IMG/VR virus record: IMGVR_UViG_3300003375_000001
Location: 128,001-192,000 of that record
Reading direction: 5' to 3' (one strand)
Length of the DNA stretch: 64,000 nucleotides
DNA from: a virus
Lineage: Duplodnaviria; Caudoviricetes
This document shows positions 1 to 9,954 of the stretch, in pieces. Made by a program: the position numbers and the translations under genes. Numbering within the stretch: the first letter of the stretch is position 1; every line of letters starts with the position of its first letter. A model generated the notes under the pieces. That model saw only the letters and a program-made list of their open reading frames with translations. It did not search any database and was not told the DNA's origin.

Positions 1-216
1 ATGGTATTCGACTACTTTGAGGCTGTGTTATCAAAGGGGTATGACAACGTGCCTAAGCTAGCGCCCTTTAAGGGGTACAGTGCGCGAGGCTCTTTATTTG
101 GCTCGGCGGCTAGTACCAGTAAGCAAAAAAGCATCTTTGACAGATATCATGCCATTCACGCAGTTTACGAAAAGTTTCATGGCGTGTCCTTAAAGACTGG
201 AAAGAAACTTGCATGA
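1..216 (+). CDS. 5'-truncated or small hypothetical protein
   Basis: ORF at the window edge; its stop overlaps the next ATG (ATGA). No recognisable motif. Confidence 0.5.
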   Translation: MVFDYFEAVLSKGYDNVPKLAPFKGYSARGSLFGSAASTSKQKSIFDRYHAIHAVYEKFHGVSLKTGKKLA

Positions 217-659
217 CCACTGACATAAGAATAAGGGGTAAGGCATACAAAGACGTAGGCGGTCTTGTATTCTTTCCTGACAAGCATAACAGGCAACTAT
301 GGGAAAGCGCCGGCTACTCAGTTTACCCCAGAATAGAATCTTGGATAACTGCTGGTTGCCCCGACAAGTCTGTTGTACATGACTACGCTGGGGTATTGGT
401 TGATACAAGCATACCCATTGTAGACTCTGTGTATAGACACGGTATATACCACAAGGTTCAGAACTTCGTCTACAAAGGGTTACCTGCAACAGTCTACTCC
501 ATTCGACCACTTGCTAAAGAGGCAAAGATGTACTCTAAGTTTGAAATGGAAATTCTTGACAATCACGGCGTCACCATGGTTGACGCAGAAGTATCCAAGG
601 CGTCTTCCGGTCATGGTAAGATGACACGGGGCGGTTCACACAGAAAGGCCAAGAAATGA
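213..659 (+). CDS. hypothetical protein (modification cluster)
   Basis: 148 aa ORF, translationally coupled on both sides. Confidence 0.6.
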   Translation: MTTDIRIRGKAYKDVGGLVFFPDKHNRQLWESAGYSVYPRIESWITAGCPDKSVVHDYAGVLVDTSIPIVDSVYRHGIYHKVQNFVYKGLPATVYSIRPLAKEAKMYSKFEMEILDNHGVTMVDAEVSKASSGHGKMTRGGSHRKAKK

Positions 660-1441
660 AAGTTTGCTTTGTCTTAAGAAATGCTCCCGATTGGCATGGC
701 CTGTCAAAATTATATGACAAGAACGGATACGTAGACCCTTCTTTATATCTTCCCCGTGACAAAGTCCCTTGTTTTCCTAAAAATGTTCCTCATTTTATAG
801 ACGTTTGGAACGACACCCTTCCTGTAAGTTACTTTAAGTTCAGGTCCGTCCTGTCCGACGTGTCTAGGGCCTATGTTAAGGCTACAGGCTGTCCTTCCTT
901 CTCTATAAGTTGCATACCCAACGACACAAATACGCTGGTTTACTTTCATGATGACGATGATCTTTTTTCATCAGAAATAACAGGCCTCACTCTACCTGAC
1001 GGTTATGACGTAACAGTAACGCCTCTCCTTCGTATAGACCCCAACAACTACTTCTTATTTTCGGCTGTACCTGTTACTTGTGGCATAGAGGTAAAGGCGA
1101 ATACCTATAGGTATAACACCAATAACTACGGAATACGGGCGTCCGTAATAGCGGATGCGCCAGGTCCTCGGGCCTACGAGGACCATATTAGAGCCTCTAC
1201 CTATGCTAAGACGGCTCTGTTAAAAGACAGTTGGTGTAACACAGTAGTTAGCGCAACCATCAAAACTCCAGCCAGCGCGTCTATCCTACCAAGAAGCTGT
1301 AAGTCACCAGAATCTCTTATAAAACAACTGTCTAAGTTTGACGTACTCTTAGGAAGTCTTTTGACTGAGCCTTTACATTCTAGCCTAGTCAAAAGTCTAA
1401 CCGAACTCCGAGTATTAACTTCGGATGCTCTTTCCAAGTAG
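656..1441 (+). CDS. putative GT-A fold glycosyltransferase
   Basis: Hydrophobic strand followed by an acidic DxD-type motif (LVYFHDDDDLF); sits in a sugar-modification operon. Confidence 0.5.
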   Translation: MKVCFVLRNAPDWHGLSKLYDKNGYVDPSLYLPRDKVPCFPKNVPHFIDVWNDTLPVSYFKFRSVLSDVSRAYVKATGCPSFSISCIPNDTNTLVYFHDDDDLFSSEITGLTLPDGYDVTVTPLLRIDPNNYFLFSAVPVTCGIEVKANTYRYNTNNYGIRASVIADAPGPRAYEDHIRASTYAKTALLKDSWCNTVVSATIKTPASASILPRSCKSPESLIKQLSKFDVLLGSLLTEPLHSSLVKSLTELRVLTSDALSK

Positions 1442-1447
1442 GTAACC

Positions 1448-2128
1448 ATGAAAAACATACTCATCCTGTCTATGCCTCGTACCCGTAGTACCTTGCTGTA
1501 TAAGGCTATATGTCAGAAAAATCCCGAGTACTACCGTTTCTACGAGCCAGGACTCGGGTATAACTGGGGTAAGTTACAGCCTAGAGAGGCTGCGGCTTTG
1601 AACGAAGCAGAAATGACGAACGTGGATAAGGCCCTAGCTTCGGGTAAGGGGACAATCGTTAAGCTCCTGCCCGCAGGTCCTTACTACCAGATATCACCAG
1701 GCCGTCTCCTAGAATGGAGTCAAGCATTCGACACCGTGTACGTCCTCAATCGGGACTTCAAGGACATTGCTAAGTCTTTTATCATAGCTAGCTCTACCAA
1801 TGTCTTTGTTGCCGATGAGGACAATCGAATAGCCCCTCGCACCACAGTGGCCTACAACCCCTTTGTTCATGAAAAGATTATATGGGAGCTGGCCTATGGC
1901 CGACAGAACCTCGACTACTGGGGAACAATTCTGACTGATAAACCACGCAACGGTAAGACCAAGTATGTAACGGAGATTGAGTATGACCATGTGTTACGCT
2001 ACATGGAGAGTCATGGTCTGAATACACAGGCTACCGAGGCTCAGACTGAGGTAAACTTTATAGACAGCGACGAGTTTACCTCACACGTTGCTTACGCCTC
2101 TAGGCTATACAACGAAAGCTTAGTATGA
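1448..2128 (+). CDS. PAPS-dependent sulfotransferase family protein
   Basis: N-terminal 5'-PSB loop ILILSMPRTRSTLL (cf. GxPRSGTT), downstream FYEP, and a 3'-PB-like VLNRDFKDIAKS segment. Confidence 0.75.
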   Translation: MKNILILSMPRTRSTLLYKAICQKNPEYYRFYEPGLGYNWGKLQPREAAALNEAEMTNVDKALASGKGTIVKLLPAGPYYQISPGRLLEWSQAFDTVYVLNRDFKDIAKSFIIASSTNVFVADEDNRIAPRTTVAYNPFVHEKIIWELAYGRQNLDYWGTILTDKPRNGKTKYVTEIEYDHVLRYMESHGLNTQATEAQTEVNFIDSDEFTSHVAYASRLYNESLV

Positions 2129-3219
2129 AACGAGTTCTATTCATAACGGCTACACCATTTACTCCGGCCAACCAAGGCAATTCTCAAAGAGCCTTGCAAA
2201 TGCTTGAGATATATAAGCAACTCGGTTACTCTGTTACCGTTCTATATCACGAAGCGGAAAGGCCCTTCGACTTTAACGATAGGGACGACACTAAGGACAC
2301 GGTAGACATTCTTAGAGTGGTTACTACAAATACAGACAAGTCCTCATTCCTTGATCCTATAACGCACCAGGCCAATCCGGATGACTGGTTTGACGGGTAT
2401 TTATTACTGAAGTCGGAAATCGAACTTCAAAGAAGCCTTTACCATTTTGACGTGGTGCACGTAAACTACGTTTGGTATTCTAAGGCGTTTGAATACTTTC
2501 CAAACTCCTTAAAGGTGATTGACACCCACGACGTGTTCTCCAATAGAGACAAGGTATTTACTAAAGCTGGACTGAAACCAGAATGGTTCTCTACTTCTAT
2601 AGACGCAGAGCGTGAGGCTCTTCTTAGAGCTGATATGGTGCTGGCTATATCTACGGAAGACGCACGCGAGTTTTTGTGTCTAGGTGTAGTACCTACCTAC
2701 CTGCCATACTACAGAGAGCCTTGCAGGAGAAAGCCAGAGGTAGGTTACATAGCAGCGGACAATGACTTTAATAGGCTCGCAGTTAGACACCTGTTGCTCT
2801 CTTTCTCGCAACTCACACACCGCAACTTTATTTTGAACATCGCAGGCTCTATCTGCAAGTATGCAGAGAGCCTACGGGTACTGGGTCTGGCTGACAATGA
2901 GGTTGTTTACTCCGGCTATGTGAAACACCTTGACGAGTTCTACTCTAGTATTGACCTTGCTGTTAATCCAGCTAAAGCAGGCACCGGTTTAAAGATAAAG
3001 ACCATAGAGGCTATGATGTATGGCGTGCCGGTTGTAACTACTAGCGCAGGTAGTACTTCAGCCTTAGATAATTGTCATTCCAGATCCGTTACTGTAGTTA
3101 AGGACACTGACGAACTAGTGAGAGCCTGCCAAAGCCGTTTCGAAATAGAGGGGATACGACCGTATGTGAACGACTACCTCAAGTCCCTTAGCTTTTTTCA
3201 AGCCCAACTAAAATCATGA
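2125..3219 (+). CDS. GT4 (GT-B) glycosyltransferase
   Basis: N-terminal TPFTPANQGNSQR, VIDTHDVFS, and C-terminal donor-binding motif GTGLKIKTIEAMMYGVPVVTT. Confidence 0.85.
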   Translation: MKRVLFITATPFTPANQGNSQRALQMLEIYKQLGYSVTVLYHEAERPFDFNDRDDTKDTVDILRVVTTNTDKSSFLDPITHQANPDDWFDGYLLLKSEIELQRSLYHFDVVHVNYVWYSKAFEYFPNSLKVIDTHDVFSNRDKVFTKAGLKPEWFSTSIDAEREALLRADMVLAISTEDAREFLCLGVVPTYLPYYREPCRRKPEVGYIAADNDFNRLAVRHLLLSFSQLTHRNFILNIAGSICKYAESLRVLGLADNEVVYSGYVKHLDEFYSSIDLAVNPAKAGTGLKIKTIEAMMYGVPVVTTSAGSTSALDNCHSRSVTVVKDTDELVRACQSRFEIEGIRPYVNDYLKSLSFFQAQLKS

Positions 3220-3920
3220 CCAAGACTATCAAAATCTACCAGATGGAGTCCACAAGTAAGTGCTCCGCTACGTGCTCCTTTTGTCCTCATCCTACTATGG
3301 AGAGAACGAAAGAGCATATGGACTTACACTTGTTCAAACGAGCTATCGATGTGATGGAGAACGACTATCTCGCTCTACATCACTTTGGTGAGCCTCTTCT
3401 GCACCCTAACCTACCAGACATGATATGGTATGCCAAAGAGAAAGGTAAACGTGTTGAATTCAGCACGAACGGGAAAGGTTTGAATAATCAGAAAGACGGC
3501 GACGACTACCTCCGTCGCGTTCTGGCTGCCGAACCTCATCGTATGCGTATTGCTTATGACTTCTTTCAACCGGATGAGTTTGTCAAAAAAGCTCTAACGC
3601 TTAACGTGTCAACCATTATTACTATGCACGCGGTAACGAAAGGCATACTCCTAGACTACAAGCCTCTCAACAACTGGGCTAATCAAATGCCTGAGCTTGG
3701 AGAGTCAGAGATAAAAGGTGAATGCTACTTCTTGAAGTACAACTACTACGCTGTAATGGCTAGTGGAAATGTAGTCCCCTGCTGCCAGGACTACGAAGGC
3801 AAACATGTGATTGGTCACATCGACGACTTGGATAACCTCAAGCCCCAAAAATCTTACACCCTGTGCAAAGGTTGCTCGGGCATGCAGTTTGCCAAGGACG
3901 GAGGCTGGGTTGCAGAATGA
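3216..3920 (+). CDS. radical SAM protein with SPASM/twitch domain
   Basis: CxxxCxxC (CSATCSFC), GEPLLHP, FSTNG, and C-terminal C...GNVVPCCQD...GHI...CKGC. Confidence 0.9.
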   Translation: MTKTIKIYQMESTSKCSATCSFCPHPTMERTKEHMDLHLFKRAIDVMENDYLALHHFGEPLLHPNLPDMIWYAKEKGKRVEFSTNGKGLNNQKDGDDYLRRVLAAEPHRMRIAYDFFQPDEFVKKALTLNVSTIITMHAVTKGILLDYKPLNNWANQMPELGESEIKGECYFLKYNYYAVMASGNVVPCCQDYEGKHVIGHIDDLDNLKPQKSYTLCKGCSGMQFAKDGGWVAE

Positions 3921-4636
3921 CTACAAAAACCTTTACCATAGTAGCACCTCACGTCGATGACGAGGTAATAGGATGCTATAGCCTTCTTGACGCTGGTCTA
4001 GTGTCTGAAGTAATATACCTGTATGAAGTAGACGAGGTGCGAAAGTCTGAGGCTCTTGCTTGCGCTAAGAGGTTCGGGTTTAAAGCTACCATAGCTGGCG
4101 TTGACTACCCCGAGTCGGAGTTACAGGCCTACTTAAGAAAAGACGTAGCGCGTAGTATAGTTTTGCCTTCAGCTTATGACAGCCATCCTGACCATAAGAA
4201 GGCGAATGCAAAGTTTAGGCCTATTGACGACTTTTCCTATACGTCTTACTACGGGGTGGACATGAGCACTCCTAATACTACGGTACTATCGGTTGAGACT
4301 CGTGACAAAAAGAGACATGACCTTTACACCCTCTTCCCCTCACAGGCCTCGTTGTTTAATAGCAGTGATAAGTATCATCTGTTCGAAGACATGAGGAACC
4401 ACGACTGCACTTTCTATAGAAATTATGGGTGGACTAATAGAAATAACACTAAGATCGTCCTGAGTAGCTTTGGTGAAAGGGGCTTCCCTCCTAGTCTCGA
4501 ATGGTGCTTCCATGCTATTGATAACGTTGGTGCTCACAACATAGAGCTAATAGCTGATCGTATCCGCTCCCTGTACCCTAAGCTAGGGGTTAAGGTGACT
4601 GTTAACGAGTCTCACTCTGTTAGTATACCTATCTAG
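3917..4636 (+). CDS. PIG-L/LmbE family N-acetyl sugar deacetylase
   Basis: APHVDDEVIG and HPDH metal-binding motifs. Start moved to ATG 3917 (ATGA overlap with the previous stop). Confidence 0.85.
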   Translation: MTTKTFTIVAPHVDDEVIGCYSLLDAGLVSEVIYLYEVDEVRKSEALACAKRFGFKATIAGVDYPESELQAYLRKDVARSIVLPSAYDSHPDHKKANAKFRPIDDFSYTSYYGVDMSTPNTTVLSVETRDKKRHDLYTLFPSQASLFNSSDKYHLFEDMRNHDCTFYRNYGWTNRNNTKIVLSSFGERGFPPSLEWCFHAIDNVGAHNIELIADRIRSLYPKLGVKVTVNESHSVSIPI

Positions 4637-4644
4637 GACACGTA

Positions 4645-4842
4645 ATGACTTTGAGCCAACAGCCCTCTGCGGAAGAATTACTGTCAATACTCTACCACTC
4701 GCTGCCAGACATTCTCCCTGCCGTTGTAGTAGACAGATTCAATAGAACAGGTGTCTGGGCTGAAGGCAGCCATTACGCTAAAAGAGGTTTTACCTCAAAG
4801 GTAGTATACCGACTTGACGATGATATTCACATAGTCCTGTAA
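4645..4842 (+). CDS. small hypothetical protein
   Basis: 65 aa ORF in operon context. Confidence 0.5.
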   Translation: MTLSQQPSAEELLSILYHSLPDILPAVVVDRFNRTGVWAEGSHYAKRGFTSKVVYRLDDDIHIVL

Positions 4843-4897
4843 GTCATGGATAGCGCAAACAAACTCTTCACACAGGCTAAGCCTAAGGAAACTCACC

Positions 4898-4975
4898 ATG
4901 AACCTAGTTAAACAGCCACTCCCCTTGTACCTTGTACCCTTGGAGCCTATAGCGTCTAAAATCTTGTACCGTTAG
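4898..4975 (+). pseudogene. orphaned 5' remnant of the downstream glycosyltransferase (MNLVKQPLPLYLVPLEPIAS-KILYR*)
   Basis: AAGGAA RBS and ATG at 4898; encodes LYLVPLEPIAS, matching LFLVTLEPIAS at the N-terminus of 5987..7147; stops soon after the repeat. Confidence 0.75.
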
Positions 4976-6040
4976 AACCTCTCATTTTTATTCAGGATAA
5001 ACTACACCTGACGAAAATGCCTAAAATCATATGGACTGACGAAAAGATTAAAACTGAATTTTACAGTGCTTGGAAAAATGCGTGTGTAATACTAAATAAG
5101 GGCACTAAGGGCAAGGCTTCCCGCTTAAAAATTAAGTGTACGCATCATGGTATATTTGAAAGCACTGTAACCAACGCTATTCGTAAAGGCTGCCCTCACT
5201 GCGCGGGCCTTACCAACTATTTATGGTCTGATGAAAGAAAACAAAAGGCCAGCCATAGACAAAAAGGTGAGCCTAAGCGTAAGGGGAGAAATAACCCCTT
5301 AACTCTTACTTTAGAAGAAGTTAAAAACAAGATAGTTAGTCTGCATGGTAATAGATACGACTTGTCTTTCATAAAAGACCCTTTCCCGCCTAATAACAAA
5401 TTTACCTTAGTATGTTCTACTCACGGTAAATTTGTCAAACATCGCACAGACATCCTGTATAACGCTAAAACAGGCTGTCCAAAATGTAAAGGTGGGAAGC
5501 TGTTAACGTCTATAGAGGTTAAGAAAAGGTTGAAGGCTACGCAGCCTAAATGGATAAGTTATTCAAAGCTAGAGTACAGTAGAGAAGGCTTTACCATAAC
5601 ATGCAAGCTCCACGGCGATAGCATAGTAAAGCCAAGTAGAATCTATTCTAAAGGCTACGTTTGCAAGCAGTGTAACGTTAAGAGAGTTAGAGACTTAAAG
5701 GTTGCAAGTGGTTTATACCTTGACCCGAAACTAAAATCAGCCTTTGCCGTATACAGGCAAGAAGTTAGAAGACTTTCCGATAAAACGTTTAAACTTCACT
5801 TCGATAAGGACACCCGGACTAAAGACGTTCACTTAGACCACGTATATTCTATAAGATCGGGATTTGACAATGAAGTCCCACCTGAGGTTATAGCTAGTTT
5901 ACCTAACCTTAGACTTCTGTCCAGAACAGATAACCAGAGTAAACGAGATAAGTGTGACATTTCACTAAAAACCTTGTATAAGTTATATGCAAAGACCAAA
6001 AACTAAACTTTTTCTAGTTACTCTTGAACCTATAGCGTCT
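4946..6040. repeat. 12-bp direct repeat CCTATAGCGTCT flanking the HNH cassette (4946-4957 and 6029-6040)
   Basis: Exact match read from the sequence; similarity extends upstream as mostly synonymous variation. Confidence 0.85.
5017..6006 (+). mobile_element. free-standing HNH homing endonuclease with repeated Cys/His zinc-binding modules
   Basis: Three C-x-x-H-G ... C-x-x-C modules (CTHHG/CPHC, CSTHG/CPKC, CKLHG/CKQC) and C-terminal HLDHVYS...NLRLLSRTDNQSK HNH core; AT- and Lys-rich; flanked by a direct repeat. Confidence 0.8.
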
Positions 6041-7147
6041 CGGTATACAGGTTCTTGGTACAAAAACTTTCCCCCAGCCTTTGAAGAGCTGGGGTTTGCC
6101 GTTACTGTGCTTGACGGTACGCCACTCACAGATACCATAAAAGTTGGTAGCTTTCTTGATATCAATTCCACGATAGCTTATAAGAACTCCCAAATGGGGA
6201 AGATAGCTGGCATGTTTCATAGAAAGGAAGTGCCTCAAGGCGCTCACTTCTATTTCATGGACATAGAATTCTGGGGAATTGAGTCGTTGCGCTTGATGGC
6301 TGACATGAACAACGTCAAGATTCATATATCCGGGTTCCTGCATGCGGCTTCTTACACAGTAGACGATGCGTTTTCTATTGCAGCTCCTTACCAGAGGTAT
6401 ACAGAGGTTGGCTGGATAGCGGCATTGGACTTGGTATTCGTTGGCTCGGAGTACCACAAGAGAGCACTAATAGACCGGCGTCTTACTCTACCAGGTCTAA
6501 GCGACTTGTCCAAGAAGGTAATCGTAACCGGCAACCCCTTGTTTCAATCTGATTATCCTGTTTATGGCTTGCCAAAGAAGAACCAGATAATACTGCCTAA
6601 TCGTATTGACTGGGGTAAGAGGCCTGACCTTAGTTTTGCTGTGGCTGCGTTGTTCAAGGCACAGAGACCTGATTGGAATGTAGTAGTAACAACAGGTAAA
6701 GAAACGTTGTCCAGTGATAAGCAATGGCTTAGTGACTATGCCTACTGGATGCAGAAGCTAGGAGTTCTTGAGATAAAAACCAACTGTACTAAGGAAGACT
6801 ACCATAAGACCTTAGCCGAAAGCAAGCTTATGATGTCATTCTCTATAGAGGAAAACTTCGGGTACTGTATAGCAGAAGCCATTATCTATAACGTACTGCC
6901 AATCCTTAGGTCAGGCTTGTCCCATGACGAATTTAGCCTTCCAGATGCCTGCTATTTTGATGACGAAGACGGAGCGTTAAAAACATTGTTGGCCCTTACG
7001 GATCTTAATAACTATAAGTATAAGCATAGAGTGACCATAGAGGATACCGTTAATACACTAAAGCACGGTAGCTGTAAGTATTTAGGCTACCCCGGTAACA
7101 ATACGTCTATACGGGAAATGGCTATTGAAATGAAGGCTCTGATATGA
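5987..7147 (+). CDS. phage GT-B fold glycosyltransferase
   Basis: LEPIASRYT N-terminus, GFLHAASY, ILPNRIDWGKRP and EENFGYCIAEA (GT4-like E-x7-E motif). Confidence 0.75.
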   Translation: MQRPKTKLFLVTLEPIASRYTGSWYKNFPPAFEELGFAVTVLDGTPLTDTIKVGSFLDINSTIAYKNSQMGKIAGMFHRKEVPQGAHFYFMDIEFWGIESLRLMADMNNVKIHISGFLHAASYTVDDAFSIAAPYQRYTEVGWIAALDLVFVGSEYHKRALIDRRLTLPGLSDLSKKVIVTGNPLFQSDYPVYGLPKKNQIILPNRIDWGKRPDLSFAVAALFKAQRPDWNVVVTTGKETLSSDKQWLSDYAYWMQKLGVLEIKTNCTKEDYHKTLAESKLMMSFSIEENFGYCIAEAIIYNVLPILRSGLSHDEFSLPDACYFDDEDGALKTLLALTDLNNYKYKHRVTIEDTVNTLKHGSCKYLGYPGNNTSIREMAIEMKALI

Positions 7148-7602
7148 GACAAGACCTTGTTGTGTTTGACATTGACGGCTGCGTTATTGACTCTGAACAT
7201 CGAGTTGATCTAATGCATCAAGGCAAGATAGATCAGTACCATGCAAAGTGGGTAGACGACAAACCTATTAAACAAGGTTTGGTTATTTACGATCTGATCA
7301 TGAAGACCAGTGACCTTAAGTGGGTGTTCGTAACCGGTCGCTTCGAATCGTGTAGAGAGTACACCCAAGCTCAACTGGAAGGTATGTTTGGTGAAGTTGT
7401 CAACTCGAAGAACCTTTTGATGCGGCCTGACGGAATGACCTCAAAGGTTAAAGAAGACGCGGAGCTGAAGCCATGGCTGCTTGAACGCGCCGGCTACTCG
7501 CTGGATAGAGTTTTTCTTGTGTTCGAAGACCGTAACAGCATGGTTAAGGCCTGGCGCAAACTAGGCAAAGTGGTCTATCAAACCGCAGAAGGGGATTTTT
7601 GA
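7144..7602 (+). CDS. HAD-family phosphatase (PseT/PNKP 3'-phosphatase-like)
   Basis: VFDIDG motif I, FVTGR motif II, LLMRP...K, and FEDR motif IV. Confidence 0.85.
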   Translation: MRQDLVVFDIDGCVIDSEHRVDLMHQGKIDQYHAKWVDDKPIKQGLVIYDLIMKTSDLKWVFVTGRFESCREYTQAQLEGMFGEVVNSKNLLMRPDGMTSKVKEDAELKPWLLERAGYSLDRVFLVFEDRNSMVKAWRKLGKVVYQTAEGDF

Positions 7603-8414
7603 TGACTATACCTATCGTCGTGCAGAATGCCGACATCAATTTGACCAAGAACTTCTTTAAGAACTTCAAAGAAGATGAGCTAGCTGTTCACGGTACATTT
7701 TACACAGTACAAGGTGAGGGGCCCTTAGCAGGTATTCCTGCCTGGTTCATTAGGCTGGCCGGTTGCAACTTCGGTGCCAAGGACATAGCTTGCAGTTTTT
7801 GCGATACGGCTTTTAGTGTTATGAAGTCTAAGGTAAGGACCATTCACGATCTGTGCAATGAGTTTTATTCCCTTTGCTACGGCTTAGGCTTTGTCCCAGT
7901 AGTGGTTATAACTGGAGGTGAACCCCTGCTCCAAGATAACGTAGAAGGGCTGGTTAGCGCCTTGCTGACTAAGACCAGTCTTTACTATGTGCCTAATACC
8001 AAGGTTCAGATAGAGACAAATGGTACACAGATACCCGTTGTTAAAAGGCTACTAAGAGACTGGGAAGACGAAGAAAATTTCGCTTTGGTAATAAGTCCAA
8101 AGACTGTTAAAGGTAGCTATGGGTTAGAAAAAGACTACGGGTATAAGACTGGATACTACTATAAGTTTGTAGTGTCCGCTGACCCTAACAACCCACATCA
8201 TGAGGTACCCAAATGGGCAGACAACATTATCACGTACGTTTCTCCTATGACAGTGTATAAAAAAGCGTACGAAGGTGAAGTGTCGAGCGTTTGGGACGGT
8301 GACCTCATAGACAGAGAAGCCACTAAAGCCAACTATGAATACGCGGCTAAGCTGGCTATGAAATACGGCTATAGGGTGTCTGTTCAAATGCACACCTTTC
8401 TTAATATCGCATAG
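7599..8414 (+). CDS. queE: 7-carboxy-7-deazaguanine synthase QueE
   Basis: FYTVQGEG...FIRLAGCN...CSFCDT, VITGGEP, IETNG, SPK, and YRVSVQMH. Confidence 0.92.
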   Translation: MMTIPIVVQNADINLTKNFFKNFKEDELAVHGTFYTVQGEGPLAGIPAWFIRLAGCNFGAKDIACSFCDTAFSVMKSKVRTIHDLCNEFYSLCYGLGFVPVVVITGGEPLLQDNVEGLVSALLTKTSLYYVPNTKVQIETNGTQIPVVKRLLRDWEDEENFALVISPKTVKGSYGLEKDYGYKTGYYYKFVVSADPNNPHHEVPKWADNIITYVSPMTVYKKAYEGEVSSVWDGDLIDREATKANYEYAAKLAMKYGYRVSVQMHTFLNIA

Positions 8415-8417
8415 ATC

Positions 8418-9269
8418 ATGAACCACATACACGAAAAGCATAGTCTTGAGTCCTCGATAAGAGGTATGTATCCTCAGGACGCAGAAACCCTTGTCGATCA
8501 CGCTGCTGACATTAAAACGGCTATAGCAAAGTATTGTAGTGACGAGGAGTCATTGTCCATGCTTGACGGTCAAGCGTCTGAGTCGGAGCTTGCAAACTTT
8601 GCAGACACACCTATTCGTGCGGCTAAGGCTTTGCAGGGAGTGCTTAAAGAAGTAGCACGCTTGGAAGAGGACACTTGTCAGCCTCTTTACCTTCATCGCG
8701 TGCTTAACGACAGAAAGACTCTTATAGACAGCCTAATGGCTAAGCCTAGATACTTCGCGGAAGTAAAGGAAATCATCGCTACAGGTTTTCCTACAGAGGA
8801 TGAGGACTGTGGCATTGTCACTCAAGGGCCCATTCATGCAAAAGGTCTATGCCCCCATCACTTCCTTCCGGTTTACTACACGGCCTTTATTGCTTACAAA
8901 CCCACAAAGGGTGGGTATGTACTTGGTCTAAGCAAACTGGCGCGCATTGTGATCGCCTTAGCCGCTCGCCCCGTTTTGCAAGAACAACTTACTGCCGATA
9001 TTGCCGACGTTCTATATAGGCACAAACAATCCAGTGTGCCTAGCGCGCAGGCTATTACAGTGAAGCCTACTGAGTCAAGACCTTGTATAGACAGCGATGG
9101 TTCAGCTCTACAGCTAATTGGTGAGCACACCTGCATGTCGTGCCGTGGCGTACGGTCTAACGCACGTACACTAACCACTGTTCTAAGAGGTGCATTCTCA
9201 AAAGACTTACACCTCAAAAGCGAGTTCTATTCCGCTATAGAAGCCATTAGACAGACGCGAAATGGCTAA
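8418..9269 (+). CDS. folE: GTP cyclohydrolase I FolE
   Basis: DTPIRAAKA, LCPHHFLP, LGLSKLARIV, QEQLT, and EHTCMSCRGV. Confidence 0.93.
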   Translation: MNHIHEKHSLESSIRGMYPQDAETLVDHAADIKTAIAKYCSDEESLSMLDGQASESELANFADTPIRAAKALQGVLKEVARLEEDTCQPLYLHRVLNDRKTLIDSLMAKPRYFAEVKEIIATGFPTEDEDCGIVTQGPIHAKGLCPHHFLPVYYTAFIAYKPTKGGYVLGLSKLARIVIALAARPVLQEQLTADIADVLYRHKQSSVPSAQAITVKPTESRPCIDSDGSALQLIGEHTCMSCRGVRSNARTLTTVLRGAFSKDLHLKSEFYSAIEAIRQTRNG

Positions 9270-9882: not shown

Positions 9883-9903
9883 GAACGTAAGCTCACATAA
9901 ACG

Positions 9904-9925
9904 AAAAGGGCCACTAGGCCCTTTT
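9904..9925 (+). terminator. Rho-independent terminator
   Basis: AAAAGGGCC-ACTA-GGCCCTTTT hairpin with T tract. Confidence 0.85.
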
Positions 9926-9954
9926 CCTATTTCTGCCTTTTTGCGAGGTGTCTC

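Follow-up and report, generated by a model that had tools for sequence, protein, structure and literature searches.

A phage gene run that points to a sugar-bearing, perhaps sulfated, 7-deazaguanine in DNA

Introduction

Near the start of a 64,000-nt stretch of phage DNA (the window; bases 128001-192000 of the complete 238,517-bp genome IMGVR_UViG_3300003375_000001, which has direct terminal repeats), genes for making 7-deazaguanine stand in one run with genes for glycosyltransferases (GTs), a deacetylase, a radical S-adenosylmethionine (SAM) enzyme and a sulfotransferase-like protein. What would a phage build with such a set of enzymes, and where would the product go? FolE, QueD and QueE together convert GTP to 7-carboxy-7-deazaguanine (CDG). 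To our knowledge, the purine modifications known from phages are small (preQ0, preQ1, ADG, G+, 2′-deoxy-7-deazaguanosine (dDG) and CDG derivatives), and bulky glycans on DNA bases are known from pyrimidines only. An earlier note on this DNA had proposed that the run builds a glycosylated and possibly sulfated amino sugar on a deazaguanine or other base. Here we argue that the locus is a heavily elaborated form of the known phage 7-deazaguanine DNA modification, and that its gene content speaks for a purine in DNA that bears a sugar, is perhaps sulfated and has yet to be described.

Results

A predicted DpdL-type deazaguanine system

The nine genes that the earlier note had listed as one tightly coupled run (a DxD-containing GT, a sulfotransferase, a GT4, a radical SAM enzyme, a PIG-L deacetylase, a GT-B, a HAD phosphatase, QueE and FolE) are all present on the + strand and in that order, as judged by the open reading frame (ORF) list and family scans. 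They belong to a single co-directional + strand run at window 213-9269 that overlaps at most of its junctions, the junctions being mostly 4-nt overlaps or gaps of 3-8 nt. The true start of the run is QueD, 2.8 kb upstream of the window, and the deazaguanine and sugar genes from QueD to FolE extend over about 12 kb. Scans of the run for promoters and for terminator-like structures gave site numbers at chance level, and a megablast search with the region gave no match among 50,697 phage records.

FolE, QueD and QueE are encoded together in this genome (Pfam and PHROG matches), and the QueE is 41-45% identical to the QueE proteins of phages BCSR5 and Motura. A second T-fold protein, DpdL, has the sequence LRNEHRHMF at residues 33-41, which fits the pattern LxxxHRHxF and replaces the CxxxHGH of QueD; by tblastn it is 29% identical to the DpdL of phage phiST (gp040) and 47% identical to a protein of phage ACP17. 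The LxxxHRHxF signature defines DpdL, a proposed CDG decarboxylase (Cui, Hutinet et al., NAR 2023, PMC10516641).

The 466-aa DpdA-like protein is matched by neither the Pfam tRNA guanine transglycosylase (TGT) model (PF01702) nor the DpdA model (PF23859). Its tblastn matches are phage genes annotated as ‘tRNA guanine transglycosylase’ or ‘TGT domain’, it scores 0.96 to viral TGT clusters in the ESM Atlas with template-modelling (TM) scores of 0.54-0.62 to archaeal TGT, and it has DSGGFQ at residue 123 and CxCxxC at residue 326. On these motifs, phage matches and Atlas neighbours, we place it in the TGT/DpdA family despite the silence of Pfam. Thus the dpdA/TGT-like gene and the queD gene, which the earlier note had suggested looking for in the rest of the genome, were both found just upstream of the window.

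That note had also mentioned the route through QueC, which the genome does not bear out. The QueC model PF06508 finds nothing in the complete 238.5-kb genome, and controls match in 14 of 14 genomes. Because QueC is absent from a complete genome, the gene content predicts a DpdL-type (phiST-like) system of 7-deazaguanine DNA modification and not the route from QueC to preQ0. The 148-aa protein at window 213-659, which has no match in Pfam, PHROG or NCBIfam, has homologs directly 3′ of the DpdA-like gene in phage BCSR5 and in loci L007, L008 and L011. We also observed that an ATP-using enzyme recurs beside DpdL in non-homologous forms: an R2K ATP-grasp protein in L011, an AAA_18 protein in phiST and an AAA_28 protein in BCSR5.

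A glycosyltransferase that travels with DpdL

The evidence that ties sugar chemistry to this pathway comes above all from the 386-aa GT-B protein encoded upstream of the HAD phosphatase gene. Its AlphaFold2 (AF2) model (predicted local distance difference test score, pLDDT, 85) has the two-Rossmann fold of the GT4 family, and the top Foldseek matches are glycogen synthase, GlgM, BshA and MshA, with E values of 1e-11 to 1e-12 and TM scores mostly of 0.65-0.72. The EX7E motif (E289-x7-E297), R206 and K211 are invariant across 26 sequences. The protein scores 24.6 bits against Pfam Glycos_transf_1, under the cut-off of 26.4; most of its homologs, of which there are at least 314, carry PF00534 in a precomputed table.

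A profile scan of IMG/VR yielded 80 loci with a homolog of this GT-B at 23-56% identity, and we counted the neighbours within 10 kb of each; because the radical SAM and QueE profiles cross-match, these two were told apart by score. DpdL lies near the GT-B in 72 of the 80 loci, FolE in 61, QueE in 52 and QueD in 50, and the DpdA subfamily of the present phage is found in 19 of them. The same association is seen in isolated phages. Specifically, Burkholderia phage BCSR5, Xanthomonas phage X1 and Acidovorax phage ACP17 have a GT-B homolog beside both a DpdA-like gene and DpdL; in the PA5oct group, in Sinorhizobium phage Phosso and in Synechococcus phage BUCT-ZZ01 its neighbour is DpdL, and in Xanthomonas phage BUDD it shares a genome with DpdL. 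Achromobacter phage Motura, which is of the QueC type, has the same DpdA-QueE-FolE order without the sugar genes. PA5oct itself carries the GT-B and DpdL, and its DNA is resistant to enzymes whose sites contain G (PMC12191111).

The wider set of loci holds three further families. A 332-aa family without a Pfam match lies directly 3′ of the GT-B in 42 further loci (L083:11028-12026 and 41 others; see also L013:8892-9830 and L015:10934-11857). It resembles the DpdA profile weakly, with DSGAHSF where that profile has DSGGFQ (hhalign E 8e-4, probability 25%), and may be an unrecognised subfamily of DNA transglycosylases, for which we regard it as a candidate. Another radical SAM family, of 456 aa (Pfam Radical_SAM 3.6e-9), different from both QueE and the BtrN-like enzyme described below and absent from the window, lies within 7 kb of the GT-B in 25 of the 80 loci (for example, L045:166-1536). 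In one subtype (X1, BCSR5, L006-L008 and others), a PP-loop protein of the PAPS_reduct family stands between DpdL/PIG-L and the GT-B (26 of 80 loci), and the same subtype has, between the same genes, a conserved 143-aa protein of the type MKIGxExEGRLKG (21 of 80); examples of these genes are at L010:8350-8883, L007:8292-8969, L008:309-941 and L004:10988-11635, and at L010:9531-9962. The PP-loop enzyme could be a QueC-like activator of a carboxylate. Amide ligation by such an enzyme was considered for the present phage and dropped, as its genome has neither the PP-loop gene nor the 143-aa family.

A deacetylase and a BtrN-like enzyme beside the glycosyltransferase

Two more enzymes of the run recur with deazaguanine genes. 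The PIG-L-like protein scores 24.5 bits against Pfam PIG-L (4.2e-5), under the cut-off of 28.2, and keeps APHVDDEVIGC and DSHPDH across seven phage homologs; the alignment has no separate conserved HxxH besides the HPDH. Its gene probably starts at ATG 3917, overlapping the stop codon of the radical SAM gene. A profile built on the PIG-L core only finds that core in 35 of the 80 GT-B loci. One ORF encodes PIG-L and DpdL together in 20 loci, with PIG-L as its N-terminal and DpdL as its C-terminal part; as classical gene-fusion evidence, this indicates a shared pathway for the two. When the PIG-L-like protein was co-folded with DpdL, the score was 0.00, which counts neither way.

The radical SAM enzyme matches Pfam Radical_SAM (1.2e-8) and SPASM (6e-4), and its cysteines comprise C16xxxC20xxC23 and, toward the C-terminus, C170, C189, C190, C217 and C220. 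When its family profile was compared with structures in the PDB, the best match was BtrN (3.7e-15, positions 5-215 of 225), with the next structure nine orders of magnitude behind (3.7e-6). By this analogy the enzyme is of the BtrN type, and we predict that it oxidises a secondary alcohol of an amino sugar or aminocyclitol. A scan of IMG/VR with the single sequence gave no match. In all five genomic contexts examined, a homolog (47-68% identity) has PTPS-family genes (QueD- or DpdL-like) nearby, with QueE and/or FolE in three of these and both GT-B and DpdL in two, and a homolog is present in 6 of the 80 GT-B loci. Homologs in Campylobacter phages annotated ‘BtrN protein’ (27% identity) have an uninformative genomic context.

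Taken together, these linkages are strong: the deazaguanine genes have conserved partners in those for the 386-aa GT-B, the PIG-L-like deacetylase and the BtrN-like radical SAM enzyme. The earlier note had likened the set to the BtrM/BtrD/BtrN enzymes of butirosin synthesis, and at the family level this analogy holds, with a GT4 fold, LmbE-type motifs and BtrN as the best PDB match.

As a side observation, the phage contigs L013-L016 (~36-80 kb), which have the BtrN-like enzyme, encode a fusion polymerase of uracil-DNA glycosylase (UDG) and PolA, and in L013 a gene for UDP-N-acetylglucosamine (UDP-GlcNAc) 2-epimerase adjoins it. Recent papers link this polymerase type to phages with T-modified genomes.

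A putative glycosyltransferase and sulfation cassette specific to the lineage

Three genes of a different character, for a GT-A protein, a sulfotransferase-fold protein and a second GT4, separate the 148-aa gene from that of the radical SAM enzyme. The 261-aa GT-A protein has 78 homolog clusters and an invariant DDDD (DxD) motif at D99-D102. It has no Pfam match, and 3 of 33 homologs match Glycos_transf_2, weakly. Foldseek alone gave weak matches to GT-A and RmlA-like folds (TM ~0.3). The identity was settled by an exhaustive VIA-align search with an AF2 model made with the 33 homologs (pLDDT 95), in which the top 24 rows are all GT-A transferases (Z 11.3-7.1), among them WrtF (11.3), SpsA (11.0) and TarS (9.7).

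The 226-aa protein is likely a sulfotransferase, as judged from model-based comparison. In the ESM Atlas it falls with sulfotransferase clusters (score 0.96, TM 0.62-0.66), and its ten best family-bearing matches there are all sulfotransferases (Stf0, Sulfotransfer_1/3). It has a PRTRST loop at residues 10-15, as in a 5′-phosphosulfate-binding (5′-PSB) motif, and R102-x7-S110, as in a 3′-phosphate-binding (3′-PB) motif, although motifs so short may arise by chance. Pfam gave no match even at E 10, none was found in the PDB, in phages by tblastn or in the IMG/VR scan, and a word-indexed search of 5.8 billion proteins returned only the protein itself. The 364-aa GT4 matches Glycos_transf_1 (1.5e-7) besides the Pfam family given in Table 1; it has no homolog in the 80 GT-B loci, and tblastn matched neither it nor the 226-aa protein among isolated phages.

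A possible source of activated sulfate is encoded upstream. The 183-aa P-loop protein scores 51.5 bits against APS_kinase (cut-off 21.1), all 21 of its 21 PDB matches are APS kinases, and its NCBIfam scores fall under the equivalog cut-offs. The closest relative, locus L011 (DpdA 54%, radical SAM 68% and GT-B 51% identical), has the order DpdL, R2K ATP-grasp, DpdA, 148-aa gene, Sulfotransfer_2, radical SAM, PIG-L, HNH, GT-B, FolE and ThyA. Its Sulfotransfer_2 protein (Pfam 2e-15), from a different sulfotransferase family, thus occupies the slot held in the present phage by the GT-A, sulfotransferase-like and GT4 genes, and its R2K-type ATP-grasp gene (L011:5738-6628) follows DpdL, whereas the APS-kinase-like gene of the present phage precedes it. 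A sulfotransferase in the same slot of L011, together with an APS_kinase-family gene here, suggests that sulfation is a recurring feature of this sub-lineage.

An HNH endonuclease island and the remaining features

The positions of all features are collected in Table 1. A gene for an HNH/DUF723 protein interrupts the run and sits inside the 5′ end of the 386-aa GT-B gene (window 4899-6040). The old 5′ end of the GT-B gene is left stranded as a minigene at 4899-4976, which reads MNLVKQPLPLYLVPLEPIAS and then stops. It ends in LYLVPLEPIAS, and the intact GT-B, which restarts inside the 3′ end of the HNH gene, has the corresponding LFLVTLEPIAS-RYTG near its start. L011 has an HNH protein (34% identity) at the matching position. 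The HAD phosphatase has a homolog near the BCSR5 cluster and is found in only 1 of the 80 GT-B loci, and so is not a conserved member of the module.

Two observations concern the surroundings. Downstream of the run, a perfect 10-bp G+C-rich hairpin at window 9903-9926, ~0.6 kb 3′ of FolE (GAAAAGGGCC ACTA GGCCCTTTTC), is the first structure that strongly resembles a terminator. At genome 119248-119919, 8 kb upstream of the window, the phage encodes a PspA/IM30-family protein (Pfam 4.1e-9), followed by a tetratricopeptide-repeat (TPR) protein.

Table 1. Features of the run and its upstream part (window positions unless marked as genome).
Feature	Position	Strand	Basis
QueD	genome 125182-125841, upstream of window	same orientation as run	PTPS 2e-22; CxxxHGH
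APS-kinase-family P-loop protein, 183 aa	genome 125848-126399, upstream of window	same orientation	Pfam APS_kinase 1.5e-13
DpdL	genome 126401-126835, upstream of window	same orientation	LRNEHRHMF; homology to DpdL of phiST and ACP17
DpdA/TGT-family transglycosylase, 466 aa	genome 126816-128216; 3′ end = window 1-216	+	phage TGT matches; motifs; Atlas
148-aa protein, function not assigned	213-659	+	trails DpdA in relatives
GT-A fold (GT2-like) glycosyltransferase, 261 aa	656-1441	+	AF2 model; VIA-align; DDDD
Sulfotransferase-fold protein, 226 aa; candidate PAPS-dependent sugar sulfotransferase	1448-2128	+	Atlas; short motifs
Second GT-B glycosyltransferase (GT4), 364 aa, lineage-specific	2125-3219	+	Pfam Glyco_trans_1_4 3.4e-17
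BtrN-like ‘twitch’ radical SAM enzyme	3216-3920	+	Radical_SAM and SPASM; BtrN profile match
PIG-L/LmbE-like metal-dependent deacetylase (predicted)	3917-4636	+	APHVDDE and HPDH motifs
65-aa ORF	4645-4842	+	ORF list; no homolog among relatives compared
HNH/DUF723 homing-endonuclease island	4899-6006 (ORF 5017-6006)	+	DUF723 1.3e-7; PHROG endonuclease 2.2e-18
Conserved deazaguanine-associated GT4-type glycosyltransferase (GT-B fold), 386 aa	5987-7147	+	AF2/Foldseek; EX7E
HAD phosphatase, PNKP-phosphatase type	7144-7602	+	Pfam HAD_PNKP 3e-14; PHROG polynucleotide kinase 8e-21
QueE (7-carboxy-7-deazaguanine synthase)	7599-8414	+	Radical_SAM 6e-10; PHROG QueE-like 1.5e-36
FolE (GTP cyclohydrolase I), N-terminal extension	8418-9269	+	Pfam GTP_cyclohydroI 7.5e-30; PHROG 1.6e-30

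Discussion

A proposed pathway

We propose that the run is an elaborated DpdL-type operon for 7-deazaguanine DNA modification with added sugar and sulfate steps, a reading to which we assign a probability of roughly 0.5. The substrates of T-fold enzymes are pterins and purines in free form, and DpdL, a small-molecule T-fold enzyme, is often the fusion partner of PIG-L; the first sugar steps, at least, would therefore probably take place on the free base before its insertion by DpdA, the alternative being decoration after insertion. In published proposals, DpdL takes CDG toward 7-deazaguanine and DpdA exchanges the base for guanine in phage DNA (PMC10516641). In our scheme, the conserved 386-aa GT4-type enzyme would move an N-acetylhexosamine onto the deazaguanine moiety, the LmbE/PIG-L-like enzyme would strip the acetyl group and expose an amine, and the BtrN-like radical SAM enzyme would oxidise the sugar hydroxyl carbon that neighbours this amine. 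The GT-A and second GT4, present in this lineage only, would then lengthen the glycan, and the sulfotransferase-fold protein would sulfate it with 3′-phosphoadenosine 5′-phosphosulfate (PAPS) topped up by the APS-kinase-family protein. The end product would be a bulky, charged purine in virion DNA, blocking restriction and other DNA-targeting defences. Candidate attachment atoms are N2, for which huimycin, whose sugar is reportedly on the 2-amino group, would be a precedent, and C7 or C8 of the electron-rich pyrrole ring.

Whether a sugar-bearing deazaguanine of any kind is present in the DNA we judge, from the gene content, to be about an even bet. The fullest form of the proposal is more tentative, and we think it rather less likely: that virion DNA of this lineage contains 7-deazaguanine with an amino-sugar glycan, further oxidised or extended and O- or N-sulfated, which is assembled on the free base and inserted by a DpdA that tolerates bulk. 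A hydroxymethyl-pyrimidine was considered as the sugar acceptor and set aside, as the genome’s sole ThyA-like gene encodes a true thymidylate synthase. Our search of the literature found no paper on glycosylated or sulfated deazaguanine in DNA, or on a link between a glycosyltransferase and DpdL.

Relation to known systems

The nearest described system is the DpdL/DpdA3 system of Cellulophaga phage phiST, which yields dDG and is predicted also in ACP17 (PMC10516641). It shares with the present phage FolE, QueD and QueE, the lack of QueC, a DpdL and a transglycosylase of the TGT superfamily, and in both phages the cluster lies among DNA-metabolism genes. However, the present phage has glycosyltransferase, deacetylase, BtrN-like and predicted sulfate genes, none of which occurs in phiST; the 466-aa transglycosylase is of another subfamily and does not match phiST DpdA3; and the product of phiST is plain dDG, whereas that predicted here is decorated.

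The sugar enzymes have their parallels in small-molecule pathways. In the synthesis of bacillithiol (BshA/BshB) and mycothiol (MshA/MshB), a GT4 enzyme transfers GlcNAc and an LmbE/PIG-L enzyme then deacetylates it, and BtrM and BtrD have the corresponding roles in butirosin synthesis; our comparison of the phage enzymes with these is one of fold and motifs. The phage GT-B is structurally nearest to BshA and MshA, among others, and shares their EX7E motif at 12-16% identity, and its PIG-L-like partner has the LmbE-type AHxDD and HPDH motifs. Those pathways use malate or inositol phosphate as the acceptor, whereas that of the phage is presumably a 7-deazapurine; the phage set also lacks a cysteine ligase, and its deacetylase is often fused to DpdL. 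All three enzyme types of butirosin synthesis, namely BtrM (GT4), BtrD (PIG-L-type) and BtrN (a twitch radical SAM dehydrogenase), occur in the phage run, but the phage has no 2-deoxystreptamine genes, its radical SAM protein is shorter than BtrN (about 225-235 aa) and the enzymes are embedded in a nucleobase pathway.

Sugar transfer onto a 7-deazapurine also has a counterpart. In huimycin synthesis, HuiG, a GT4-type enzyme that uses UDP-GlcNAc, acts on an O-methylated preQ0 intermediate (bioRxiv 10.64898/2026.04.15.718813). By this description of HuiG, huimycin and dapiramicin resemble the system proposed here in the GT4-type transfer of GlcNAc onto a 7-deazaguanine-derived base made with FolE, QueD and QueE; they differ in being actinomycete secondary metabolites made from preQ0, with QueC present and no transglycosylase. 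Decoration of DNA itself is familiar from the glucosylated hydroxymethylcytosine of phage T4 and related systems, in which phage GT-B or GT-A enzymes modify bases against restriction, as we propose. Those enzymes act on pyrimidine hydroxymethyl groups, whereas the glycosyltransferase described here is tied to genes for a deazaguanine, a purine.

Weighing the alternatives

Several points count against the proposed pathway. Sugar or sulfate on this DNA is a prediction from genes, and 7-deazaguanine has no hydroxyl group, so that a retaining GT4 would have to use an unusual acceptor atom. Plain dDG arises in phiST with DpdL but without any glycosyltransferase (PMC10516641 and the phiST locus), which makes the glycosyltransferase an add-on and not a requirement, and the decarboxylase activity of DpdL is itself a proposal (PMC10516641). 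The sulfotransferase call for the 226-aa protein comes only from short motifs and from its likeness to sulfotransferases in language-model and structural comparison. The alignment of the APS-kinase-like protein is confined to residues 25-125 (profile 4-105 of 152), and NAD takes the place of the DGD seen in the aligned APS kinase; a slighter point is that unrelated P-loop families also follow DpdL in phiST (AAA_18) and BCSR5 (AAA_28). Finally, a homolog of the GT-A lies on a 5-kb contig with Sulfotransfer_3 and GT4 genes and no que genes, and the trio of GT-A, sulfotransferase-like protein and 364-aa GT4 is found in 0 of the 80 GT-B loci. The earlier note’s expectation that sugar genes co-occur with que genes in relatives is thus borne out in part: GT-B, PIG-L and radical SAM genes do so in many unrelated phages, PIG-L::DpdL fusions included, but the trio (0/80) and the HAD phosphatase (1/80) do not. 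With the trio absent from the related loci, its proposed link to DNA comes only from its position in the operon, and it looks like an imported glycan-sulfation cassette.

These facts allow for a division of labour, in which GT-B, PIG-L and the radical SAM enzyme serve the deazaguanine pathway and the trio, perhaps with the APS-kinase-like gene, was acquired to make a sulfated glycan elsewhere, such as on virion proteins, the host envelope or a small molecule, its place in the operon being then no more than a tolerant insertion site. The absence of the trio from the related loci and from isolated phages would fit, as would the 5-kb contig without que genes, and the AAA_18 and AAA_28 genes after DpdL in phiST and BCSR5 suggest that a P-loop gene at that place need not supply PAPS. 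We nevertheless consider this unlikely, if a serious competitor, because the trio is translationally coupled within the run between the 148-aa partner of DpdA and the radical SAM gene, because L011 has another family of sulfotransferase in exactly the same slot, so that sulfation recurs there, and because the P-loop gene of the present phage is specifically of the APS_kinase family. A different possibility is that the sugar is a transient handle or cofactor, with the GT-B (and PIG-L) helping to make or deliver a base that ends in DNA as plain dDG or 2′-deoxy-7-carboxy-7-deazaguanosine (dCDG). DpdL and DpdA of ACP17 alone gave no dDG in Escherichia coli (PMC10516641), the ACP17 homolog of the GT-B sits between those two genes and its inclusion in that test is not reported, and the PIG-L::DpdL fusions hint at free-base chemistry. 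However, phiST achieves full replacement by dDG without a GT-B, and its DpdL and DpdA likewise failed in E. coli; moreover, additional glycosyltransferases, a BtrN-like oxidase and sulfate genes would be of little use for a removable handle. We regard the handle as improbable.

The product could also be a free glycosylated 7-deazapurine that is aimed at the host or at competitors and stays out of DNA, in the manner of huimycin or dapiramicin. The PIG-L::DpdL fusions suggest base-level chemistry, and GT4-type enzymes do make natural products with an N-glycosylated 7-deazapurine, but we give this idea little credence, given that the cluster includes a TGT/DpdA-family gene both here and in close relatives, that a second candidate transglycosylase family (332 aa) follows the GT-B in 42 further loci, that the clusters lie among replication genes and that PA5oct DNA behaves as G-modified. 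A transglycosylase of the TGT superfamily, together with the occurrence of glycosylated queuosine in animal tRNAs, might instead suggest a queuosine- or archaeosine-like base, possibly glycosylated, in tRNA. This we find very hard to credit: the literature assigns phage transglycosylases that are co-encoded with FolE, QueD and QueE to DNA modification, modified DNA has been measured in several phages (although direct assays of DpdA3 and DpdA4 failed), and the genome has no QueC, QueF, QueA or QueG route to queuosine.

Implications

The proposed DNA modification would extend well beyond one phage. A GT4 that accompanies DpdL in cultured phages, among them PA5oct, ACP17, X1 and BCSR5, and in no fewer than 72 loci of uncultured ones predicts a class of sugar-bearing deazaguanines. 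The window has the richest version among the loci compared, adding two further transferases, a deacetylase, a BtrN-like oxidase and predicted genes for sulfate activation and transfer. If the prediction is true, it would explain why reconstitution with DpdL and DpdA failed and why PA5oct DNA looks G-modified. In the fullest, sulfated form of the proposal, no glycosylated purine and no sulfated base would have been described from DNA before. Such a base would have a bearing on restriction, CRISPR and glycosylase-based defences, on the sequencing and cloning of phage DNA, and on tools for site-specific glycosylation of DNA.

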